This document shows positions 29,423-37,900 of a DNA stretch of 64,000 nt, piece after piece. The notes beneath the pieces are model-generated. The model was not told the origin of the DNA. It saw only the letters and a program-made list of their open reading frames with translations, and made no database searches. The DNA comes from an uncultured Desulfurococcaceae archaeon. GTDB taxonomy: Archaea; Thermoproteota; Thermoprotei_A; Sulfolobales; NBVN01. Each line of letters opens with the position of its first letter. Within the stretch, counting starts at the first letter, position 1. The translations under genes and the position numbers were made by a program. Where the stretch lies: NCBI GenBank assembly GCA_964399035.1, contig CAYNPH010000037.1, forward strand, positions 4,681 to 68,680, read 5' to 3'.

Positions 29423-31930
29423 TTGAGTAATGATCAGCACCGCAAACTCCACTTACTCGGCCATAGCCACTTAGATGTTGCTTGGCTCTGGCCCACCAGT
29501 GAAGCGAGGGAAGTCTTCGTTAAGACTGTTGCGAACGTTCTTAAGCTCATGAGTAAGTACCCTGGCTTCACATTCGCTCAGAGCACGGCCCTCTACTACG
29601 ACTGGTTAAGGTCGCTTAAGCCGGAACTCCTGGAGGAGGTTAAGCGCAGGGTTCGTGAGGGGAGGTGGGAGGTCGTTGGCGGGTCGTGGGTTGAGAGTGA
29701 CTGCATACTCCCGTCCGGTGAGGGCCTAGTTAGGCAGTTCCTGTACGGTAAGAGGTTCCTTAAGCGTGTGTTGGGTGTTGACGTGAGGGTGGCTTGGTTC
29801 CCCGACAGCTTCGGCTTCCCTGCTTCACTCCCCCAAATACTTCGGGGATGCGGGATCAAGTACTTCGTCACGCAGAAGCTTAATTGGAACGACACCGTCA
29901 TGTTCCCCTACAACCTATTCAAGTGGTTGTCCCCTGACGGCTCCGAGGTCCTCGCCTACCAGACCGTGGGTGGGTACTGGGGCAACCCGGGTGAGGTGTG
30001 GAAGGTCGCCACGTACTTCCTAGCCCTACACGCAAGGCACGGTATCGGGGACCTACTCCTCATATACGGTTACGGCGACCACGGATGCGGCCCCAAGGAA
30101 GAGGAGGTTGCCGCGGCCGAAGCCCTCGTGAGGGAAGTACCGCCCGAACTTAAGGCCTTAGGGGTTAGTGAGGCTAGGCACTCACGTGCTGAGGACTACT
30201 TAAGGATGGTGGAGGAAGCGCACGGCGACCGCATACCTAAGTACGTTGGTGAACTCTACCTCCAATTCCACCGCGGAACCTACACCTCGCAAGCAAGGAT
30301 TAAGGAACTCGTAAAGGAGTGCGAACATTTACTGGAGACCCTCGAGAAGCTACTCACGCTAAGGTACCTAGCCTCAGGGAAGCCGTATGATAGGCGGGAG
30401 GTCGAGTCCCTCTGGAGGGAGGTCCTCACAGCCCACTTCCACGACGTGCTCGCCGGCTCACTATCGAAAACGCCCTACACGGAGTTCCTGAATAGGCTCT
30501 CGAAGCTACGGAAGAACCTCCACGCTAGGGTACGCGCGCTAATAGCGGAACTCCTTAACGTGCCTAACGCTGAGGACGGTAAGGGAAGCTTAGCGGTGTT
30601 CAACCCGTTGCCGAGGGAGGTACGTACCTACGTTGAGTTGCCGGGCCGCGGACTAGTTAGGGTGAGGGCGCCACCGCTAGCGCTGGTTGCCGCGGAGCCC
30701 GAGGAGGTTGAGGCGGGCGCGGAAGTGGTTGATGGTGGGGATCACCTGATCCTGAGGAACGGGTTGGTGGAGGTTAGGGTGAGTAAGGAGACGGGTGAGG
30801 TGAGGTCCCTGAAGCTCCTAGCTAATGGTCAAGGCAAGGAGTTCTTGGGAGGCCGAGGCGTGGGGTTCGAGGTGTATGACGACACACCACGCCTCGGCAG
30901 GGCGACCGCCGGAACCATCGAGAAGTTCGTTGACTACGCCTTCGACTGCTGGGAACTCTACCACCTCCAGAGGCTGGACGGGGTCAAGTACCGGAGGCTA
31001 ACGAAGCCCGTCAAGGTGGAGGTCACGGAGCGAGGACCTTCAAGGGCGTCCGTGATGATCGAGTACGCGTACAGGGATGAGGGCGGCGAGGCCAGGTTAA
31101 GGCACCACATACGCGTGTACGCCGGGGAACCGTGGGTCGAGGGCGTCGTCGAAATTGAGTGGGCACTCACCCATCGCCTGCTGAAGCTCGTGGCCGACCT
31201 AAGCATGTGGGCAGAAAACATCGTCGTCGGGCAACCCTACGGCCACGCAGTAAGGAGGAACCCAGCATCACCGTACTCCACCCTCTACGACAGGGCGATG
31301 TGGGAGGCATGGTTCAACGGCTGGATCGACTACAGCAACGGGAAAGCCGGACTAGCGCTGATCTGCGGCACCCGCTTCGGGTATGACGTCATGGGTAAGA
31401 CCCTCAGGCTAACCCTACTGCGGGGACCGAGATTCCCTCCCGAAGGCGCTATCGGCGTCCCGTGGACTCCCGAACTCCTTAAGGCACAAGACCCGGTCGA
31501 GTCAGGGCGCTACCGAATAACCTACTACCTCTACCCACATGAAGGCGACTGGGTCGCGGGTAAGGTACCTACGAAGGCCGAGGAACTACTGAATAGACCG
31601 TACGTCACGGTGGTGCGGGAACCCAAGGTCAGGGAGGTTACCCCCATAACGATTGAGGCTGGTGACGTTGAGGTTCCGGTGCTGAAGGTCTGCGAGGATC
31701 GGGACGACTGCGTGGTGTTGAGGGCCTTCAACCCGTACGGCCGTAGCGGCGTCGTGAGCGTGGGTCTAAGGGGTGCTGACGTGGTTAAGGCTGAGGAAAC
31801 CAACATGCTTGAGGAGAGCTTGAGCGAGGTACCCGTGAGTAACAACGGTAACCTCACCTTAAAGGTGAGGCCATTTAAGGTCGCCACATTTAAACTCACG
31901 GTCAAACATGACGGGACGCGATCAGTGTGA
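29423..31930 (+). CDS. Alpha-mannosidase, GH38
   Basis: HSHLDVAWLW (Zn), WEVVGGSWVE, RQFLYG, WFPDSFG (nucleophile), YGYGDHG, FHRGTYTSQ, HFHDVLAG. Confidence 0.95.
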   Translation: MSNDQHRKLHLLGHSHLDVAWLWPTSEAREVFVKTVANVLKLMSKYPGFTFAQSTALYYDWLRSLKPELLEEVKRRVREGRWEVVGGSWVESDCILPSGEGLVRQFLYGKRFLKRVLGVDVRVAWFPDSFGFPASLPQILRGCGIKYFVTQKLNWNDTVMFPYNLFKWLSPDGSEVLAYQTVGGYWGNPGEVWKVATYFLALHARHGIGDLLLIYGYGDHGCGPKEEEVAAAEALVREVPPELKALGVSEARHSRAEDYLRMVEEAHGDRIPKYVGELYLQFHRGTYTSQARIKELVKECEHLLETLEKLLTLRYLASGKPYDRREVESLWREVLTAHFHDVLAGSLSKTPYTEFLNRLSKLRKNLHARVRALIAELLNVPNAEDGKGSLAVFNPLPREVRTYVELPGRGLVRVRAPPLALVAAEPEEVEAGAEVVDGGDHLILRNGLVEVRVSKETGEVRSLKLLANGQGKEFLGGRGVGFEVYDDTPRLGRATAGTIEKFVDYAFDCWELYHLQRLDGVKYRRLTKPVKVEVTERGPSRASVMIEYAYRDEGGEARLRHHIRVYAGEPWVEGVVEIEWALTHRLLKLVADLSMWAENIVVGQPYGHAVRRNPASPYSTLYDRAMWEAWFNGWIDYSNGKAGLALICGTRFGYDVMGKTLRLTLLRGPRFPPEGAIGVPWTPELLKAQDPVESGRYRITYYLYPHEGDWVAGKVPTKAEELLNRPYVTVVREPKVREVTPITIEAGDVEVPVLKVCEDRDDCVVLRAFNPYGRSGVVSVGLRGADVVKAEETNMLEESLSEVPVSNNGNLTLKVRPFKVATFKLTVKHDGTRSV

Positions 31931-32870
31931 GGCTGGTTTTTCCCGGTAGCTTGAAGTAAGGTTCCCTTAACTCCGTCGCGCGCCTGAACGCATCCTTCAG
32001 GCCCTCAGCATCCCTCCTCAGTATGGCGTCCCTAGCGTCAACGGTTAGGTCGGGCCTGTATATGCATGTCTGTAGCTTGCCGTCGGGGGTCATCCTTAGC
32101 CTAGTGCATCTAGCGCAGAGGTAGGGGTTCCCGAAACCCTTAATGACGTATACCCTGATGCCGGAGGGCATTAAGTAGGTGGGCCTGTTCTGGAACTCGG
32201 CGAACCATACCTTACTGGCTCTCTCCCTCAGGTACTCCTCCACGGGACTTAACCCTACATGCAGCTCCCTGTAGACATCGGGTGGGGTGCCGACAGGTAT
32301 TAACTCAATCACGTTCAGATCAGCCCCTATTCTCGAGGCGTAATCCACGATGTCCTTAAACTCATCAACGTTTAGGGAGAGCACCAAGTAATTGAGCTTC
32401 ACCTTGAGCCCAGCGTCAACCGCTGCCTTAATACCCTTCAAAACATCATTTAGGGAACCCCCGCCAGTTATCCTCCTGAAAACATCCTCTCTCAACGAGT
32501 GTAGGGATACGTTAACCCTACTTAACCCGGCCTCGGCGAGTGCAGATGCAAACTCCCTTAACCTTGAGGCATTGGTGACTAAGCTAACATCCTTAACATG
32601 CTGGGATATTGCTGAGACGATGTCCGCAACATCGTCCCTGACTAAGGGCTCACCACCAGTTAGCTTGAAACCAACGATACCCAGGGATGAAGCCACCTCC
32701 GCCACAAAGCCGAAGTCACCCGCGCTCAGCTCGTCCTTAACCTGCGAGGCGGGTATCCCCTCCCTATGGCAGAAGATGCACGCGTGGTTACACCTTAGCG
32801 TTATGCTTACCCTCAACCTATTCACTGGCCTACCGAACCTATCCACCAGCAAGCTAGGCGATATCTTCAC
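31902..32870 (-). CDS. moaA: GTP 3',8-cyclase (molybdopterin biosynthesis)
   Basis: DRFGRP..LRVSITLRCNHACIFCHREG, LTGGEP, and C-terminal C..CTRLRMTPDGKLQTC. Confidence 0.95.
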   Translation of the reverse strand: MKISPSLLVDRFGRPVNRLRVSITLRCNHACIFCHREGIPASQVKDELSAGDFGFVAEVASSLGIVGFKLTGGEPLVRDDVADIVSAISQHVKDVSLVTNASRLREFASALAEAGLSRVNVSLHSLREDVFRRITGGGSLNDVLKGIKAAVDAGLKVKLNYLVLSLNVDEFKDIVDYASRIGADLNVIELIPVGTPPDVYRELHVGLSPVEEYLRERASKVWFAEFQNRPTYLMPSGIRVYVIKGFGNPYLCARCTRLRMTPDGKLQTCIYRPDLTVDARDAILRRDAEGLKDAFRRATELREPYFKLPGKTSLTLIASRHV

Positions 32871-33044
32871 TCACCCCTTCAGCCACTAAGCATAAGTAGG
32901 GCACAGTAAAATAAGTGTATTTTATTGGAGTTGGTCAACGTTAAACAGAGACGATATACTTGTGAAGAATTCCCTTCAACGCCGGTGCGTGAAAGTCTAC
33001 GAATGGCGCCCCACGCATTGTCGTTGGACCCGCTAACCTTAATT

Positions 33045-33072
33045 AATCGTTATCAGTTATTTGATAACGATT
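33045..33072. promoter_or_regulatory. Perfect 11-bp inverted repeat AATCGTTATCA-N6-TGATAACGATT (candidate operator)
   Basis: Read directly, 15 nt upstream of ATG 33087; the core CGTTATC-N8-GATAACG recurs at 34844-34865. Confidence 0.7.
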
Positions 33073-33086
33073 CAAGGGTGCCTCAA

Positions 33087-34829
33087 ATGAGTGATGCGGG
33101 CCACGGTGACAGAAGCTACGTACGTTGTAACGTGTGCGAGTTTCGATGCTCGATACCTGAGGGCGGTGCGGGTCGATGTAGAATGATAACGAATAGGGGC
33201 GGGAACCTAGAGGAGGTCTTCCATCAGTACTTCACCTTCACATTCCCCGTAAACTCTGAGGCGGTTCCGCTCCTCCATTTCTACCCTAACCATCCGTTCC
33301 TGGCAGTAGGGTCTATCGGATGTAACTTCACATGTGTGGGGTGCATATCCCGCACCCTAACCCAGCGCATTAAGCTGGCAACTAAGTTACTTCGAAGGAG
33401 GAGCTTGAGAGATATCATAAAAGAGGCGGTGGGCCTCGGGTGCGTGGGTGTGGCGTTCATCCTGAGCGAACCAACCGTAACTTACTGGACGTTCCTGAGG
33501 CTAGCTAAGCTAGCGAAGAGGGAGGGCTTACTTGTCGGGTGCTCCTCAAACCTCTACCTAACTGCGGATGCCCTATCAAGACTCGCACCCTATCTAGACT
33601 TTGCGGTTGCGGGCATCAAGGGTTTCTCGCCAGGAATTTATGCTAGGCTCAGCGGTGGCGCGGAACCAGCGCCAGTATTCAGGAACATCGAGTTCCTGGT
33701 GAGGGAGGGAATCCATGTTGAGGTCACGATCACCTACTACAGGGGTCTTGAGGATGAAGTCCTTCACGCGGCCAAGGCGATCGCCAGCATATCACCTGAG
33801 ATTCCCTTTCACATAATGGTGTTTACAGCTCCCTCAGAGGAGTACCTTGGGCTGGAGCCAGATGTTGGCGTTGCCGAGCGGTTGTGTGATACGATCAGGA
33901 GGGAGTACCTTAAGTACGCGTACCTGTTCAACATTCCTGGAACTAAGTACCTGAATACAGTGGTGGGTGGCGAGGAAGTCATTAAGCGCGAGTTCTTCGG
34001 CCCATGCTCAGCTAAGGTAACTTACTTCACACGTAACGCGGAAAGGGTGGCTGGCATTAAGGGGCACATAGCCCGTGAGTGCCCAATCAACGCCGAGTCC
34101 TTCATGCTGGGCTACAGGGTCACAGGTGCCTTAGAACTTATTGACTCAGTACTGCGGTTCCTAGGAGTTACCGATGAGACCGTGAGGTACGAAGCTCTTG
34201 GGAATGCAATCGAGCAGGGCTTCACAGACACGATACGTAGCACCCTAAACAACTCACCGAGCCCGCAGGAGCTACGCGGCTTAATGCAGGCAATAGCTAA
34301 GCTAGCTGGGCTGAGCCTAAGTAACCACCCTAAGGTGCTCTTCATCGACAAGGTAACGGAAACCATAGAACGATTAAGGGCGAGGATAGTGAAGCCCCGG
34401 AAAACCTATCTATGCTTAGGCCACCCGCTCTACGCGAAGAGGAAAGGATCATACCAGCTGGAATTACTTAAGTTCATAGGGTCTGAATGCATCAATTACT
34501 CGCTAAGTAGCTCCAGCACCATAGGGCAGAACGCCGGCGCGGAGGAACTGAAGCGCCTATCCCCTGAAGTGATATTCATAGACGCGCACTTCCCCTACAG
34601 CGTTGAGGACTTCATGAGGCTCTCCGAAGAGATAGGTCTGGACTTGAACGCGATTAAGCATCACAGAGTATATAAGGTGCCTCCCGCTTACAGAGGTTTC
34701 CATTACTGGTTACTTCAGGCTCTTTTCATGGCGTCCAAAACGTATTCAGATACGTATCCGTCTTCCTTAGTTAATAACGCTGAGAAATGCTTACTTCAAG
34801 GTAATTGCCGCTTGATTATGACTGGTTAA
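33087..34829 (+). CDS. Radical SAM (PFL-activase-like) protein fused to a C-terminal class III (Fe/B12-type) binding-protein-like domain
   Basis: Start moved to ATG 33087. CNVCEFRC..GRC, GCNFTCVGC (CxxxCxxC), SEPT; C-terminus EELKRLSPEVIFI..LNAIKHHRVYKVP resembles the Peripla_BP_2 C-lobe. Confidence 0.75.
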   Translation: MSDAGHGDRSYVRCNVCEFRCSIPEGGAGRCRMITNRGGNLEEVFHQYFTFTFPVNSEAVPLLHFYPNHPFLAVGSIGCNFTCVGCISRTLTQRIKLATKLLRRRSLRDIIKEAVGLGCVGVAFILSEPTVTYWTFLRLAKLAKREGLLVGCSSNLYLTADALSRLAPYLDFAVAGIKGFSPGIYARLSGGAEPAPVFRNIEFLVREGIHVEVTITYYRGLEDEVLHAAKAIASISPEIPFHIMVFTAPSEEYLGLEPDVGVAERLCDTIRREYLKYAYLFNIPGTKYLNTVVGGEEVIKREFFGPCSAKVTYFTRNAERVAGIKGHIARECPINAESFMLGYRVTGALELIDSVLRFLGVTDETVRYEALGNAIEQGFTDTIRSTLNNSPSPQELRGLMQAIAKLAGLSLSNHPKVLFIDKVTETIERLRARIVKPRKTYLCLGHPLYAKRKGSYQLELLKFIGSECINYSLSSSSTIGQNAGAEELKRLSPEVIFIDAHFPYSVEDFMRLSEEIGLDLNAIKHHRVYKVPPAYRGFHYWLLQALFMASKTYSDTYPSSLVNNAEKCLLQGNCRLIMTG

Positions 34830-34843
34830 GTAAATCTTAAATA

Positions 34844-34866
34844 CGTTATCCGTTATCCGATAACGG
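34844..34866. promoter_or_regulatory. CGTTATC-N8-GATAACG palindrome (with nested CCGTTATC-C-GATAACGG) upstream of the ABC SBP gene
   Basis: Read directly; same half-sites and spacing as 33048-33069. Confidence 0.65.
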
Positions 34867-34997
34867 TGATTAAGAGTGGTTGTTGAGTGTTTTGTCGAGC
34901 GTGGAATCCGTACGCATTGGCTGAATGCGGTTCCCTTGTTTGTGGTCAGCAAGAGTATATATTTAGGTGTACCTATTACCATAATGAGGTGCACTAA

Positions 34998-36158
34998 ATG
35001 AGCAGAAAAGCGTTAAGCAAAGCAATTTCCGTAGCGATAATAGTAGCAATAGTTATCTGCATCATCGCTGGTAGTGCGTACTACCTACACATAAGTAAAC
35101 GCGCAAACTTCACCACAACTACAAGCGTAGCGGCAACATCAGCCACTACCAGCACGAGAACGTCGACAACAACCAGGCAAGGGGGAGCAGCCACCACACA
35201 ATATGTTGTGGTGGTCGACGCCAGAGGTAAGAAGGTGAAGATACCTGAGCCCGTTACGAGGGTGATTGCATTATACGGTATGGCGCCGCCCTTCCTTTAC
35301 CTGCTCGGCGTAGGGAATAAGTTCTATGGGGGCTGGTCATGGGGTGAAGATTTCTATAAGCTCGTTGACCCAGAATTCAATAAGAAGATAGGGTTTGGAA
35401 GGTCAATGAACGTTGAGGAGATCGTTAAGGTAAGACCACAATTAGTTATAGCTGCTACATGGAGAAGATTCTCTAAGATGGTATCCCAGCTAGAGAGCTT
35501 AGGGATACCAGTAGTGTGTATTAAGATCGAAAACATTAACGAAATTTACAGTACCATATCAATGTTCGGTAAGATCTTTCACAAGGAGAAGTACGCGAAC
35601 ACCATAATCAACTACTATAAGTCCATAGTTAATGAAGTAGAGTCTAAGGTGAAAAGTGTCTCAACGAAACCCAAGGTACTGATACTGTACTACAGTGGAA
35701 GGCACCACAGCCTAAGGACGTTCGGCGGCGACATGTTCCAAAGCAAACTAGTCGAGCTTGCTGGCGGAGTGAACGTCGCCGGAAACCTATCAGGGAAGAA
35801 GGGGGTTAACGTAGAGCAGGTAGCTAAGTGGAACCCAGACATAATACTGATAATACAGTACGGCGTCCCGGCAAGCAAGACCCTCCAGCTAATCAGGAAC
35901 GACCCAGCGTGGCAGGCAATTAAGGCGGTTAAGGATGGGAAGGTATACGTAGTTCCTTACGACGGCGAGAACTGGATTGACCCGTGTCCGAAGTGGGCCC
36001 TCGGCCTGCTGTGGCTCGGCAAGGTTCTTCACCCACAGCAGTTTAAGGACGTTAACCTTACTGAGGTCGCGGCGCACTTCTACAAGGAGTTCTTCAACCT
36101 GAGCTTAAGTGAGGTGCACATAACTGGTAACCTAACGGTGAGCACTGCTAAGGGGTAG
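34998..36158 (+). CDS. Type II ABC importer substrate-binding protein (FepB/BtuF/MolA class III)
   Basis: N-terminal TM and Thr linker, VVDARGKKVKIPEPVTRVI, NVEEIVKVRPQLVI, VNVEQVAKWNPDII, AVKDGKVYVVP. Confidence 0.9.
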   Translation: MSRKALSKAISVAIIVAIVICIIAGSAYYLHISKRANFTTTTSVAATSATTSTRTSTTTRQGGAATTQYVVVVDARGKKVKIPEPVTRVIALYGMAPPFLYLLGVGNKFYGGWSWGEDFYKLVDPEFNKKIGFGRSMNVEEIVKVRPQLVIAATWRRFSKMVSQLESLGIPVVCIKIENINEIYSTISMFGKIFHKEKYANTIINYYKSIVNEVESKVKSVSTKPKVLILYYSGRHHSLRTFGGDMFQSKLVELAGGVNVAGNLSGKKGVNVEQVAKWNPDIILIIQYGVPASKTLQLIRNDPAWQAIKAVKDGKVYVVPYDGENWIDPCPKWALGLLWLGKVLHPQQFKDVNLTEVAAHFYKEFFNLSLSEVHITGNLTVSTAKG

Positions 36159-36162
36159 CACG

Positions 36163-37122
36163 ATGGATAAGGCGATCCTAAAGCTCACGGTGTTTTTCAT
36201 ATTCCTGTTTATTACCTCACTCAGTGTTGGTAGGCTCCTCTTTCCCCCATGGCATGCCAACGCGCTCGACAGGACGATAATTACGTACGTGCGCCTGCCG
36301 AGGGTTGCGGCGGCCTCACTCACAGGCGCCGCGCTAGGCTTAGCGGGGGTGGCGCTACAGAACATCTTCAGGAATTACTTGGCAGGGCCCGGAATACTCG
36401 GCGTCACGAGCGGCTCGGCGTTCGGCGCCGTGCTCGCCATACTTCTCCTGCCCCCGAACCCAGCCGCGGTTCAGTTAACTGCATTCGTGTTCGGCCTGAT
36501 GGCGATGCTCCTCGCATACTACTTAGCTAGGCTTGCGGGTGGAGGGATACTGGCGCTGATACTGGCAGGCATAGTTACCTCGGCGCTGTTCTCGGCGTGC
36601 GTCGGCATGGTTAAGTACATGGCGGATCCCTACAATAAGTTGCCGGCCATGGTTTACTGGTTGCTGGGTAGCTTCGCGGGAACTAAGTGGAGTGACCTCG
36701 CCCCAGCAGTACCGCCCTTACTCATCGGTGTGGTGACGCTCCTCTTACTTAGGTGGGTTCTTAACGTGCTTTCACTAGGGGATGATGAGGCGGTGGCGTT
36801 AGGCGTGAACGTGGGTTTATTCAGGGCCTTAACAATAGTGGCCGCGACCCTGGCGACCTCCGCCTCCACCTCCCTAGCAGGCATGATAGCTTGGGTTGGG
36901 GTAGTGAGTCCCCACATCGCTAGGCTACTTGTAGGGTATGATAACAGGAGGTTAGTGCCGGCATCCGCGTTAGTCGGTGCCACGCTACTGCTCTTCTGCG
37001 ACGACCTAGCCAGGACCCTGTCCGCGGCCGAGCTACCGTTGAGTGTTATGACTAACTTCGTCGGCGCCCCCATACTCTTCGCCATACTCGTTAGGAGGAG
37101 GGCGTGCCTTGCTGGAAGTTAA
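36163..37122 (+). CDS. Type II ABC importer permease (FecCD/BtuC/MolB family)
   Basis: VRLPRV, QNIFRNYLAGPGILGVTSG, YWLLGS, LSLGDDEAVALGV, GMIAWVG..PHIAR. Confidence 0.92.
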   Translation: MDKAILKLTVFFIFLFITSLSVGRLLFPPWHANALDRTIITYVRLPRVAAASLTGAALGLAGVALQNIFRNYLAGPGILGVTSGSAFGAVLAILLLPPNPAAVQLTAFVFGLMAMLLAYYLARLAGGGILALILAGIVTSALFSACVGMVKYMADPYNKLPAMVYWLLGSFAGTKWSDLAPAVPPLLIGVVTLLLLRWVLNVLSLGDDEAVALGVNVGLFRALTIVAATLATSASTSLAGMIAWVGVVSPHIARLLVGYDNRRLVPASALVGATLLLFCDDLARTLSAAELPLSVMTNFVGAPILFAILVRRRACLAGS

Positions 37123-37900
37123 GGACCTGTGGTTCAGGTACGGTGCCCCGGCCAATAAGGGGTACGTGTTGAGAGGCGTTTCACTAAGGGTCGATTGCTG
37201 CGTCGCTTGCCTACTAGGCCCTAACGGCGCCGGGAAGACCACGCTCATGAAGTGCGTTGTGGGTATCCTAAAGCCGGAGCGAGGGTGTGTGATGCTTGAA
37301 GGTCAGAGCATCACGGACATGGACTGCAGGTCAAGAGCCAGGTTAGTTTCCTACGTACCGCAGGAATTCACAGTTAAGTTCCCCTACACTGCATTCGAGG
37401 TCGTGTTGATGGGTAGGAACCCCTACGTAAACACCCTGCAGGGCCCGCGGGCTGAGGACGAGGCTAAGGCGCGTGAGGCCCTCAAGGCCCTAGGTGTGGA
37501 GCACTTAGCGGAGAAACCCTTCACGTCACTCAGCGGCGGGGAGAAGAGGTTAATCCTCATAGCTAGGGCACTCGCACAGGATGCTAAGCTACTAGTCCTA
37601 GATGAGCCAACATCGTTCCTCGACTACAGGAATAAGATAGTGGCGTTGGAAACCTTAAGGAGGGTGTCTCGACGCTTCAGTAAACCAGCCCTCATATCGC
37701 TCCACGACCCAAACCTAGCGCTACTATTCTGCGATGAGGTCTTCCTAATGAAGGACGGGGAAATAGTCGCTAAGGGCAAGCCCGAGGAAGTCGTGACGAG
37801 GAACAACATAAGGCGCGTTTACGGCATTAAGGTGAGGGAACTACGCGTTAACGGTTGCAAACTAATAGCCCCGGAGAACGCCCTATTCGGTGCGACGTAG
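37109..37900 (+). CDS. Type II ABC importer ATPase
   Basis: GPNGAGKTT, LSGGEKR, ARALAQ, LVLDEPTSFLD, SLHDPN. Confidence 0.93.
   Translation: MLEVKDLWFRYGAPANKGYVLRGVSLRVDCCVACLLGPNGAGKTTLMKCVVGILKPERGCVMLEGQSITDMDCRSRARLVSYVPQEFTVKFPYTAFEVVLMGRNPYVNTLQGPRAEDEAKAREALKALGVEHLAEKPFTSLSGGEKRLILIARALAQDAKLLVLDEPTSFLDYRNKIVALETLRRVSRRFSKPALISLHDPNLALLFCDEVFLMKDGEIVAKGKPEEVVTRNNIRRVYGIKVRELRVNGCKLIAPENALFGAT

Follow-up and report, generated by a model that had tools for sequence, protein, structure and literature searches.

In the genome of an uncultured Desulfurococcaceae archaeon (2.12 Mb in 105 contigs), a stretch of 64,000 nucleotides (C37:4681-68680, hereafter the window) carries moaA divergent from a gene for a radical S-adenosylmethionine (SAM) enzyme fused to a cytoplasmic Peripla_BP_2-like domain, which is followed by the three genes of a type II ATP-binding cassette (ABC) importer. 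Each of the two intergenic regions that flank the radical SAM gene contains one copy of the palindrome CGTTATC-N8-GATAACG, referred to below as operators 1 and 2. Operator 1 stands between moaA and the radical SAM gene, with its end 15 nt 5′ of the ATG of the latter, and operator 2 lies 15 nt 3′ of the stop codon of that gene and 132 nt 5′ of the ATG of the importer's binding-protein gene. A sequence-only reading of this DNA had described the twin palindromes, judged chance very unlikely and proposed that they mark a regulon responsive to molybdenum or tungsten; the sequences and positions that it gave proved to be exact (Table 1).

Table 1 Features of the window and of the regulator, wtpA and GAPN loci. 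G000 is the genome studied here, G001 and G005 are same-genus genomes, and bits for the operators are from the genome-wide scan.
Feature	Position	Strand	Remarks
moaA (GTP 3′,8-cyclase)	31902..32870	-	NCBIfam moaA_archaeal, 325.3 bits; divergent neighbour, molybdenum/tungsten cofactor context
TATA-like box	33039..33046	+	TTAATTAA; abuts operator 1 on its upstream side; conserved in G001 and G005
Operator 1	33045-33072		AATCGTTATCA-GTTATT-TGATAACGATT; core CGTTATC-N8-GATAACG at 33048-33069; 34.2 bits
Radical SAM/Peripla_BP_2-like fusion, 580 aa	33087..34829	+	predicted target of operator 1
TATA-like box	34836..34843	+	CTTAAATA; abuts operator 2 on its upstream side
Operator 2	34844-34865		CGTTATC-CGTTATCC-GATAACG; 34.7 bits
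Membrane-anchored class III substrate-binding protein (Peripla_BP_2), MolA homologue	34998..36158	+	Pfam, 90.5 bits
FecCD/BtuC-type permease of the type II ABC importer	36163..37122	+	Pfam FecCD, 271.5 bits
ABC ATPase of the importer	37109..37900	+	Pfam ABC_tran, 104.9 bits
Third site, before wtpA	C64:12983-13004		CGTTATT-CGTTATCC-GATAACG; three-heptad layout as in operator 2
Candidate regulator, 360 aa	C64:13005-14087		ModE-type winged helix + PBP_like; immediately upstream of wtpABC
Fourth site, before GAPN	C67:26074-26095		19 nt 5′ of the GAPN gene; 28.3 bits in G000

The two operators have the same 7-bp arms and an 8-nt spacer in each. Operator 2 has a third half-site as its spacer (CGTTATC CGTTATC c GATAACG), operator 1 a degenerate one (AGTTATT), and because the spacers themselves hold half-sites, both operators are short heptad arrays and not simple dyads. 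With up to two mismatches allowed, a scan of the window returned three matches where 0.14 were expected, and none of 100 shuffles reached three; the twin operators are thus far beyond chance, as first supposed. Both are also kept in the same genus: operator 1 is identical in G001 and has one mismatch in G005, and operator 2 retains both arms in G001 with a changed spacer (CGTTATC-AGTTAACC-GATAACG).

Across the whole genome, the pattern CGTTATC-N8-GATAACG occurs three times exactly and once with one mismatch, and spacings of 4-7 and 9-12 gave no exact match. A weight-matrix scan of the same 2.12 Mb was cleanly bimodal: four sites scored 28.3-34.7 bits, and the match that followed them only 13.8 bits. 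This fifth match, CCATTATTATTTATTTAATTACGA at C52:45861, lies 17 nt 5′ of a gene for a 562-aa secreted or membrane protein of unknown function and is probably just an A/T-rich promoter. The third site stands between the stop codon of a gene for a 360-aa protein and wtpA (NCBIfam WtpA NF003196, 368 bits against a cut-off of 355), which is followed by the permease and ATPase genes of wtpABC, the high-affinity tungstate transporter. The fourth precedes the gene for GAPN, the archaeal non-phosphorylating glyceraldehyde-3-phosphate dehydrogenase (NF040869, G3PDH_Arch, 839.7 bits against a cut-off of 780), an enzyme that serves archaeal glycolysis as the tungsten-independent alternative to the tungstoenzyme GAPOR. 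Tungsten use is otherwise represented in this genome by four AOR-family genes and a MoeA-PBP fusion. The expectation that the motif would recur before wtpA or modA, AOR or moa genes was therefore borne out in part, with a site at wtpABC; none of the four AOR-family genes has an upstream site in the genome-wide scan, so that they were rejected as targets, and moaA is probably not controlled, as discussed below.

The 360-aa protein encoded next to the third site is the candidate regulator. Its N-terminus is a ModE_repress/HTH_1 winged helix (TIGR00637, 67.9 bits, residues 25-96) that matches ModE structures in the PDB (2ijl, E 7.6e-15; Escherichia coli ModE 1b9m, E 8e-12), with a recognition helix reading PYSRAW as compared with SYKSAW in E. 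coli ModE. The C-terminal sensor is a PBP_like domain (PF12727, 157 bits by Pfam), which stands in the place of the Mop/TOBE domains, none of which was found in the protein by Pfam. Across 45 homologues, the PBP_like domain has invariant Ser, Thr, Arg and His positions (SHD, GS, NR..GSGTR). An AlphaFold model based on the alignment of these homologues has a mean predicted local distance difference test score (pLDDT) of 92; its full-length fold matches are LysR-type regulators (best matches OxyR, BenM, CbnR and CcmR), and those of the effector domain include the oxyanion-binding proteins PstS, PhnD, ModA (3gzg) and AioX. The sequence-only reading had suggested looking for ModE/TOBE, DtxR or NikR regulators, and the candidate instead joins the N-terminal helix-turn-helix (HTH) domain of ModE to a PBP_like domain. 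No canonical ModE was found in the genome, where three TOBE-bearing open-reading frames (365-379 aa) on other contigs all proved to be without a ModE HTH. Two further ModE-type HTH proteins of ~ 380 aa are encoded at C67:29372-30508 and C19:7758-7994; in the former, the HTH is C-terminal, behind a long unannotated N-terminal part, and the recognition helix reads PLTTLRKR. A literature search of incomplete coverage, which did not include RegPrecise, found no description of an archaeal regulator/operator pair of the ModE_N-PBP_like type.

The motif was then followed through other genomes. The wtpA operator is conserved: four further species of the genus and two further genera of its family have it, with arms kept and spacers varying. 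Scanning the regulator alignment against one genome per prokaryotic species gave 61 loci (449 kb) from Desulfurococcales, Acidilobaceae, Pyrodictiaceae, Thermoproteaceae, Thermofilaceae, Bathyarchaeia, Nitrososphaeria (including Candidatus Wolframiiraptor), Geothermarchaeota and Njordarchaeota. In these loci, with up to two mismatches, the motif occurs 37 times and its reversed control not once. Sites above 14 bits were found at 35 of the 57 loci outside the genus and at none of the unrelated control loci (145 kb); since the matrix was built partly from the sites that it scored, the pattern count is the independent figure. The motif usually lies in the intergenic region that separates the regulator gene from a divergently transcribed transporter operon, the first gene of which encodes a TupA-like, WtpA or ModA protein (ten flanking proteins sampled). 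The phyletic pattern agrees: among 41 relatives, allowing one mismatch, 18 sites were counted in the 17 genomes with a full-length regulator and six in the 24 genomes without one, the latter being approximately the rate of the reversed control. This co-occurrence, across loci and across genomes, is the reason for assigning the motif to the C64 regulator and to tungsten/molybdenum uptake.

Other lineages mostly have a full operator 20-75 nt 5′ of the regulator gene itself as well. This genus has, upstream of the regulator gene (C64:14150-14180), no more than two direct half-sites (TAATAACGATAACG) together with a distant CGTTATT, and these are degenerate in G001 and G005. Autoregulation was rejected for this genus, given that no full operator stands upstream of the gene, and it may have been lost or weakened once the regulator gene had become the immediate upstream neighbor of wtpA.

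The regulator loci also reveal how the operator is built. In an unbiased count of GTTATC/GATAAC pairs (loci L064-L120), inverted pairs showed only spacings of 1, 8 and 15, and direct repeats spacings of 7 and 14, indicating that the operator is a heptad array phased at 7 bp, in which 7-N8-7 is the commonest half-site pair. A phasing of 7 bp is not a multiple of the helical repeat, which suggests alternative registers or several dimers per operator. No description of such phasing for ModE was met in the literature search, within its incomplete coverage.

Taken together, the comparative evidence makes it probable that the palindromes are the operators of the C64 regulator, that this protein senses tungstate or molybdate and that it controls four targets with ModE-like logic. 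As proposed from these sequences, the regulator would read the heptad half-sites CGTTATC/GATAACG in inverted arrays with 7-bp phasing at the radical SAM/Peripla_BP_2 fusion gene, the MolA-like importer, wtpABC and GAPN. An oxyanion bound in the PBP_like pocket would place the regulator on operators that abut or follow TATA boxes, and occupancy of these would block the recruitment of the TATA-binding protein (TBP) and transcription factor B (TFB) or of RNA polymerase. When tungsten (or molybdenum) runs short, the regulator would leave its sites and the uptake systems would be expressed together with the tungsten-sparing GAPN. ModE likewise represses its transporters when metal is replete. The presence of GAPN in the regulon of two species also suggests a metal-sparing switch at the glyceraldehyde-3-phosphate step, with GAPN replacing a tungstoenzyme. 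The regulon first proposed thus gains support from the wtpABC site and from the co-occurrence of the regulator with tupA, wtpA and modA, with moaA and the AOR genes falling outside it.

The sign of this regulation was judged from promoter roles that follow archaeal promoter geometry. At the radical SAM gene, the TATA-like box directly precedes operator 1, and the transcript would start within or just after the operator. GAPN has a T-rich box ~ 10 nt 5′ of its operator, with the start codon 19 nt 3′ of it. At both genes, the operator would occupy the classical position of an archaeal repressor, between TATA and the transcript start. The box next to operator 2 is a possible distal promoter of the transporter operon, which would then have a leader of ~ 130 nt. 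A block of ~ 40 nt just 5′ of the binding-protein ATG (34955-34997) is near-invariant in three species, in contrast to the divergent remainder of the leader; it contains a TATA-like box, GGTGTAC...GGTGCAC and a Shine-Dalgarno-like element, GAGGTG, and may be a second promoter or the site of another regulator. The wtpA operator has TATA-like boxes on both sides, and the spacing of the downstream box suits a leaderless start at the GTG. If that box is the one used, the operator would overlap the TFB-recognition element (BRE).

Several observations weigh against the tungstate/molybdate repressor that we favor. The binding-protein ATG is far from operator 2 and much closer to a second TATA-like box of better conservation (34955-34964), which makes control of the transporter by operator 2 less certain than that of the other three targets. 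The GAPN site is found in only two of four species of the genus, at 28.3 bits in G000 and 22.5 bits in G002; in G001 and G005, the orthologous position holds a degenerate version. GAPOR itself was not demonstrated among the four AOR paralogues, which NCBIfam and PDB searches resolve only to ‘AOR family’, and for this reason the switch from GAPOR to GAPN is put forward here as a suggestion. The genome encodes three ModE-type HTH proteins, of which only the C64 regulator has PBP_like. The ModE of Methanosarcina acetivorans bound its sites in vitro unaltered by molybdate (PMC12327845), so a ModE-type DNA-binding domain is no guarantee of direct metal sensing. Finally, at wtpA and at most of the divergent regulator/tupA promoters, the operator is directly upstream of a TATA-like box.

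Some of these points would fit the same regulator and operators working by another logic, through binding that metal releases, as an activator, or as a TaoR-like dual regulator whose effect depends on operator position. Archaeal activators can bind directly upstream of a TATA box, and an operator that abuts the BRE side of such a box, as at wtpA and the divergent promoters, is a possible activator site; the far-upstream position of operator 2 relative to the proximal promoter-like box of the binding-protein gene and the indifference of M. acetivorans ModE to molybdate point the same way. At the radical SAM and GAPN genes, however, the operator fills the gap that separates the start codon, 15-19 nt away from it, from the TATA-like box, which is repressor geometry, and inducing high-affinity uptake and a tungsten-independent bypass at metal plenty would make little physiological sense. 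Nor would it accord with known relatives, as transporters are repressed under replete metal by ModE and, reportedly, by TaoR, which Rajeev and colleagues are said to have found in 2019 to activate aor and to repress tupABC. We regard a different logic as unlikely.

The number of ModE_repress-like HTH regions in the genome, three in all, also raises the question of whether the motif belongs to another protein, either the C67 or the C19 ModE-type HTH protein or a regulator of iron or cobalamin. The C67 protein is encoded 3.3 kb from the GAPN operator, the importer belongs to the family of iron-siderophore, B12 and heme transporters, and in our own comparison the GATAAC hexamers faintly recall Fur boxes. 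Yet across phyla the motif tracks the ModE_N-PBP_like gene together with tupA, wtpA or modA, and where that gene is missing from a genome the motif is no more frequent than background. The C67 recognition helix, PLTTLRKR, is unlike PYSRAW, the hexamers of Fur boxes run in the opposite arrangement, and neither wtpABC nor GAPN has a link to iron uptake. Another regulator is accordingly quite improbable, and we infer that the C64 protein is the one that would occupy these sites.

The predicted target of operator 1 has an AmmeMemoRadiSam/PflA-like core at residues ~ 1-300 (Pfam Radical_SAM; NCBIfam TIGR04337, 75.7 bits, below the cut-off) and a C-terminal part with weak similarity to the neighboring binding protein. 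Its 38 homologues of 565-630 aa come from Halobacteriota, Desulfatiglans, Desulfotomaculum and others, many with a C-terminal PF01497 domain, and their genes are always accompanied by FecCD and ABC ATPase genes and often by SAM methyltransferase genes. Among the 41 relatives, the fusion itself is present only in G000 and G001, the latter with both flanking operators. G005 lacks the radical SAM gene and has a single operator that joins the left flank of operator 1 to the right flank of operator 2, as seen when window positions 33045-34865 were compared with L041 (G005:C144, 3925-4152) and with L036 (G001:C165). Recombination between the two 22-bp operators may have removed the gene; the alternative is that it came in as a cassette with a duplicated operator.

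A junction inside a single operator copy, along with the position of operator 2 only 15 nt after a stop codon, would also fit repeats that are non-regulatory, whether as boundaries of a mobile cassette, as sites of recombination or as hairpins in RNA, for instance a terminator downstream of the radical SAM gene. Against this, the same motif stands in the promoters of the unlinked wtpA and GAPN genes and beside the regulator gene in distant lineages, and on both strands the spacer varies between conserved arms, as is typical of a protein site. A hairpin would have a stem of only seven A/T-rich pairs and no T-run; the terminator scan called none at the operator sites, and a search for a riboswitch or RNA element in the 130-nt leader gave no Rfam match at E ≤ 1 and an unremarkable fold (z = -1.47). 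Recombination between two 22-bp operators accounts for the indel as a by-product. A non-regulatory origin is highly improbable.

The divergent gene moaA was considered as a further target and rejected. Operator 1 is 177 nt from its start, beyond the promoter-like region of moaA itself, and moaA is for this reason probably not under operator 1 control. In another relative, a 46%-identical fusion keeps the divergent pairing with moaA, with importer and operator absent. An inverted repeat, TAAAATA-AGTG-TATTTTA (32900-32930), lies ~ 40-55 nt 5′ of the moaA start and is invariant in G000, G001 and G005; it probably represents the core promoter of moaA or else a separate operator.

The importer downstream of operator 2 is related to a known molybdate/tungstate transporter. 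Its binding protein matches Haemophilus influenzae HI_1472/MolA (PDB 3psa, 3psh) over the full length at E 7e-29, the third-best PDB match, and the system resembles MolBC-A (HI1470-72) of that organism in combining a MolA-homologous binding protein with a FecCD permease and an ATPase, and in its predicted placement, by way of the operator, under a molybdenum/tungsten-type regulator. Oxyanion contact in MolA is made by Y114, K221, R264 and Y301 (bioRxiv 10.64898/2026.10.15.759412). In our own mapping from the PDB alignment, with an inferred numbering offset of 21, K221, R264, Y301 and Y114 align with M, G, D and W in the binding protein, and the cargo may therefore differ from that of MolA, as these ligand-contact residues are not conserved. 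A true MolA orthologue was rejected on these grounds, clear as the homology is, and the system is accordingly not classed here as a molybdate/tungstate importer. Orthologues of the binding protein occur only in G000, G001 and G005, and the operator is upstream in all three.

Close homologues of the binding protein (46-67% identity) adjoin radical SAM genes in Methanotorris formicicus, another archaeal metagenome-assembled genome (MAG) and a Thermoanaerobacteraceae MAG. The M. formicicus locus has the same radical SAM fusion and two methyltransferases, and the Thermoanaerobacteraceae locus adjoins DUF364 and a ModA-family (SBP_bac_11) ABC transporter. A module recurs at these and other loci (L134 in M. 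formicicus, L136 in Thermoanaerobacteraceae, L054 in Desulfatiglans, L055 and L056) that comprises a radical SAM enzyme, often fused to Peripla_BP_2, a Peripla_BP_2/FecCD/ABC importer and one to several SAM methyltransferases, with variable neighbors (DUF364/DUF4213, XdhC, a TonB receptor, a ModA-family ABC transporter). No ModE-like palindromes were found at the homologous modules in Methanotorris, Desulfatiglans and others. The published site list of M. acetivorans ModE includes molybdate transporters, two ‘Fe ABC transporter’ operons and a radical SAM gene, and oligonucleotides from one such operon, ma1234, and from the radical SAM gene ma1204 were shifted by the protein (PMC12327845). Together, the module contexts and this list point to a recurrent tie between the radical SAM/importer module and molybdenum/tungsten metabolism.

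It is conceivable, if rather doubtful, that the operator identifies this widespread module as serving tungsten/molybdenum acquisition, such that complexed or thiolated metal, or a pterin cofactor or its precursor, would be imported under limitation and processed by the radical SAM enzyme while GAPN takes over from GAPOR in parallel, all as one tungsten-sparing response under a new class of regulator common to many Thermoproteota and some Asgard archaea.

To our knowledge, the control of tungsten use in archaea is barely known; we are aware of only one archaeal ModE that has been studied, the Mop-domain protein of Methanosarcina, and of only one PBP_like sensor that has been characterised, in the bacterial TaoR. 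The present analysis adds a candidate regulator/operator pair that combines a ModE DNA-binding domain and a PBP_like sensor with a CGTTATC heptad-array operator. Conservation of the pair in Desulfurococcales, Pyrodictiaceae, Bathyarchaeia, Wolframiiraptor and Njordarchaeota means that MAGs could serve for reading tungsten/molybdenum regulons directly. The analysis also offers a handle on the function of a widespread module of radical SAM enzyme and type II ABC importer that is automatically annotated as iron-siderophore transport and, if true, would place a metal-sparing switch at the glyceraldehyde-3-phosphate step of glycolysis.

Among known systems, E. coli ModE shares with the regulator described here a homologous winged-helix DNA-binding domain and an operator before an oxyanion ABC transporter. 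The E. coli consensus is ATCGCTATATA-N6-TATATAACGAT (PMC2700814), and the modA operator, read from NC_000913.3, is CGTTATATTGTCGCCTACATAACG, that is, CGTTAT-N12-ATAACG. All four sites in this genome are of the CGTTATC...GATAACG type and thus have the half-site CGTTAT of modA. The initial comparison with bacterial ModE sites, made on the basis of their outer ATCG..CGAT ends, holds insofar as operator 1 has such ends and the half-site is that of modA, but the spacer is 2 bp shorter (CGTTAT-N10-ATAACG) and the arrays are phased at 7 bp. The sensors differ as well, with Mop/TOBE in E. coli and a PBP_like domain of the type II binding-protein fold here, and the transcription machinery with which the present regulator would interact is archaeal.

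The closest parallel in operator form is M. acetivorans ModE, an archaeal repressor of the ModE type that binds RTTATGT-N8-RCATAAY in gel shifts (PMC12327845). Like the operators described here, this is a 7-N8-7 palindrome with GTTAT, and the combination of transporter and radical SAM sites is shared. Its GTTAT cores are separated by 12 nt, as against 10 nt here, and a single Mop domain stands in that protein in place of PBP_like. The Methanosarcina regulon serves nitrogenase switching, whereas the one proposed here includes wtpABC and GAPN, and the two organisms belong to different phyla, with the present genome in the Thermoproteota, order Desulfurococcales.

With respect to the sensor, a near system is the TaoR family, which has a PBP_like domain (PF12727/IPR024370) and is tied to tungstate/molybdate transporters and tungstoenzyme metabolism (PMC11980592). 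That sensor is common to TaoR and the C64 regulator; the DNA-binding domains differ, TaoR reportedly being a bacterial protein with an excisionase-type HTH_17, in contrast to HTH_1/ModE_repress here. TunR has a XerC-like DNA-binding domain and a ModE-like effector domain. The overall plan of winged helix, linker helix and type II binding-protein effector domain resembles that of LysR-type regulators, to which the full-length model aligns at E ~ 1e-11 but with template-modeling (TM) scores of only 0.35-0.45 and 11-16% identity, and without a Pfam match to LysR_substrate (PF03466). The regulator differs from this family in that its effector domain is like the oxyanion-binding transport proteins and its operator is ModE-like, not T-N11-A.

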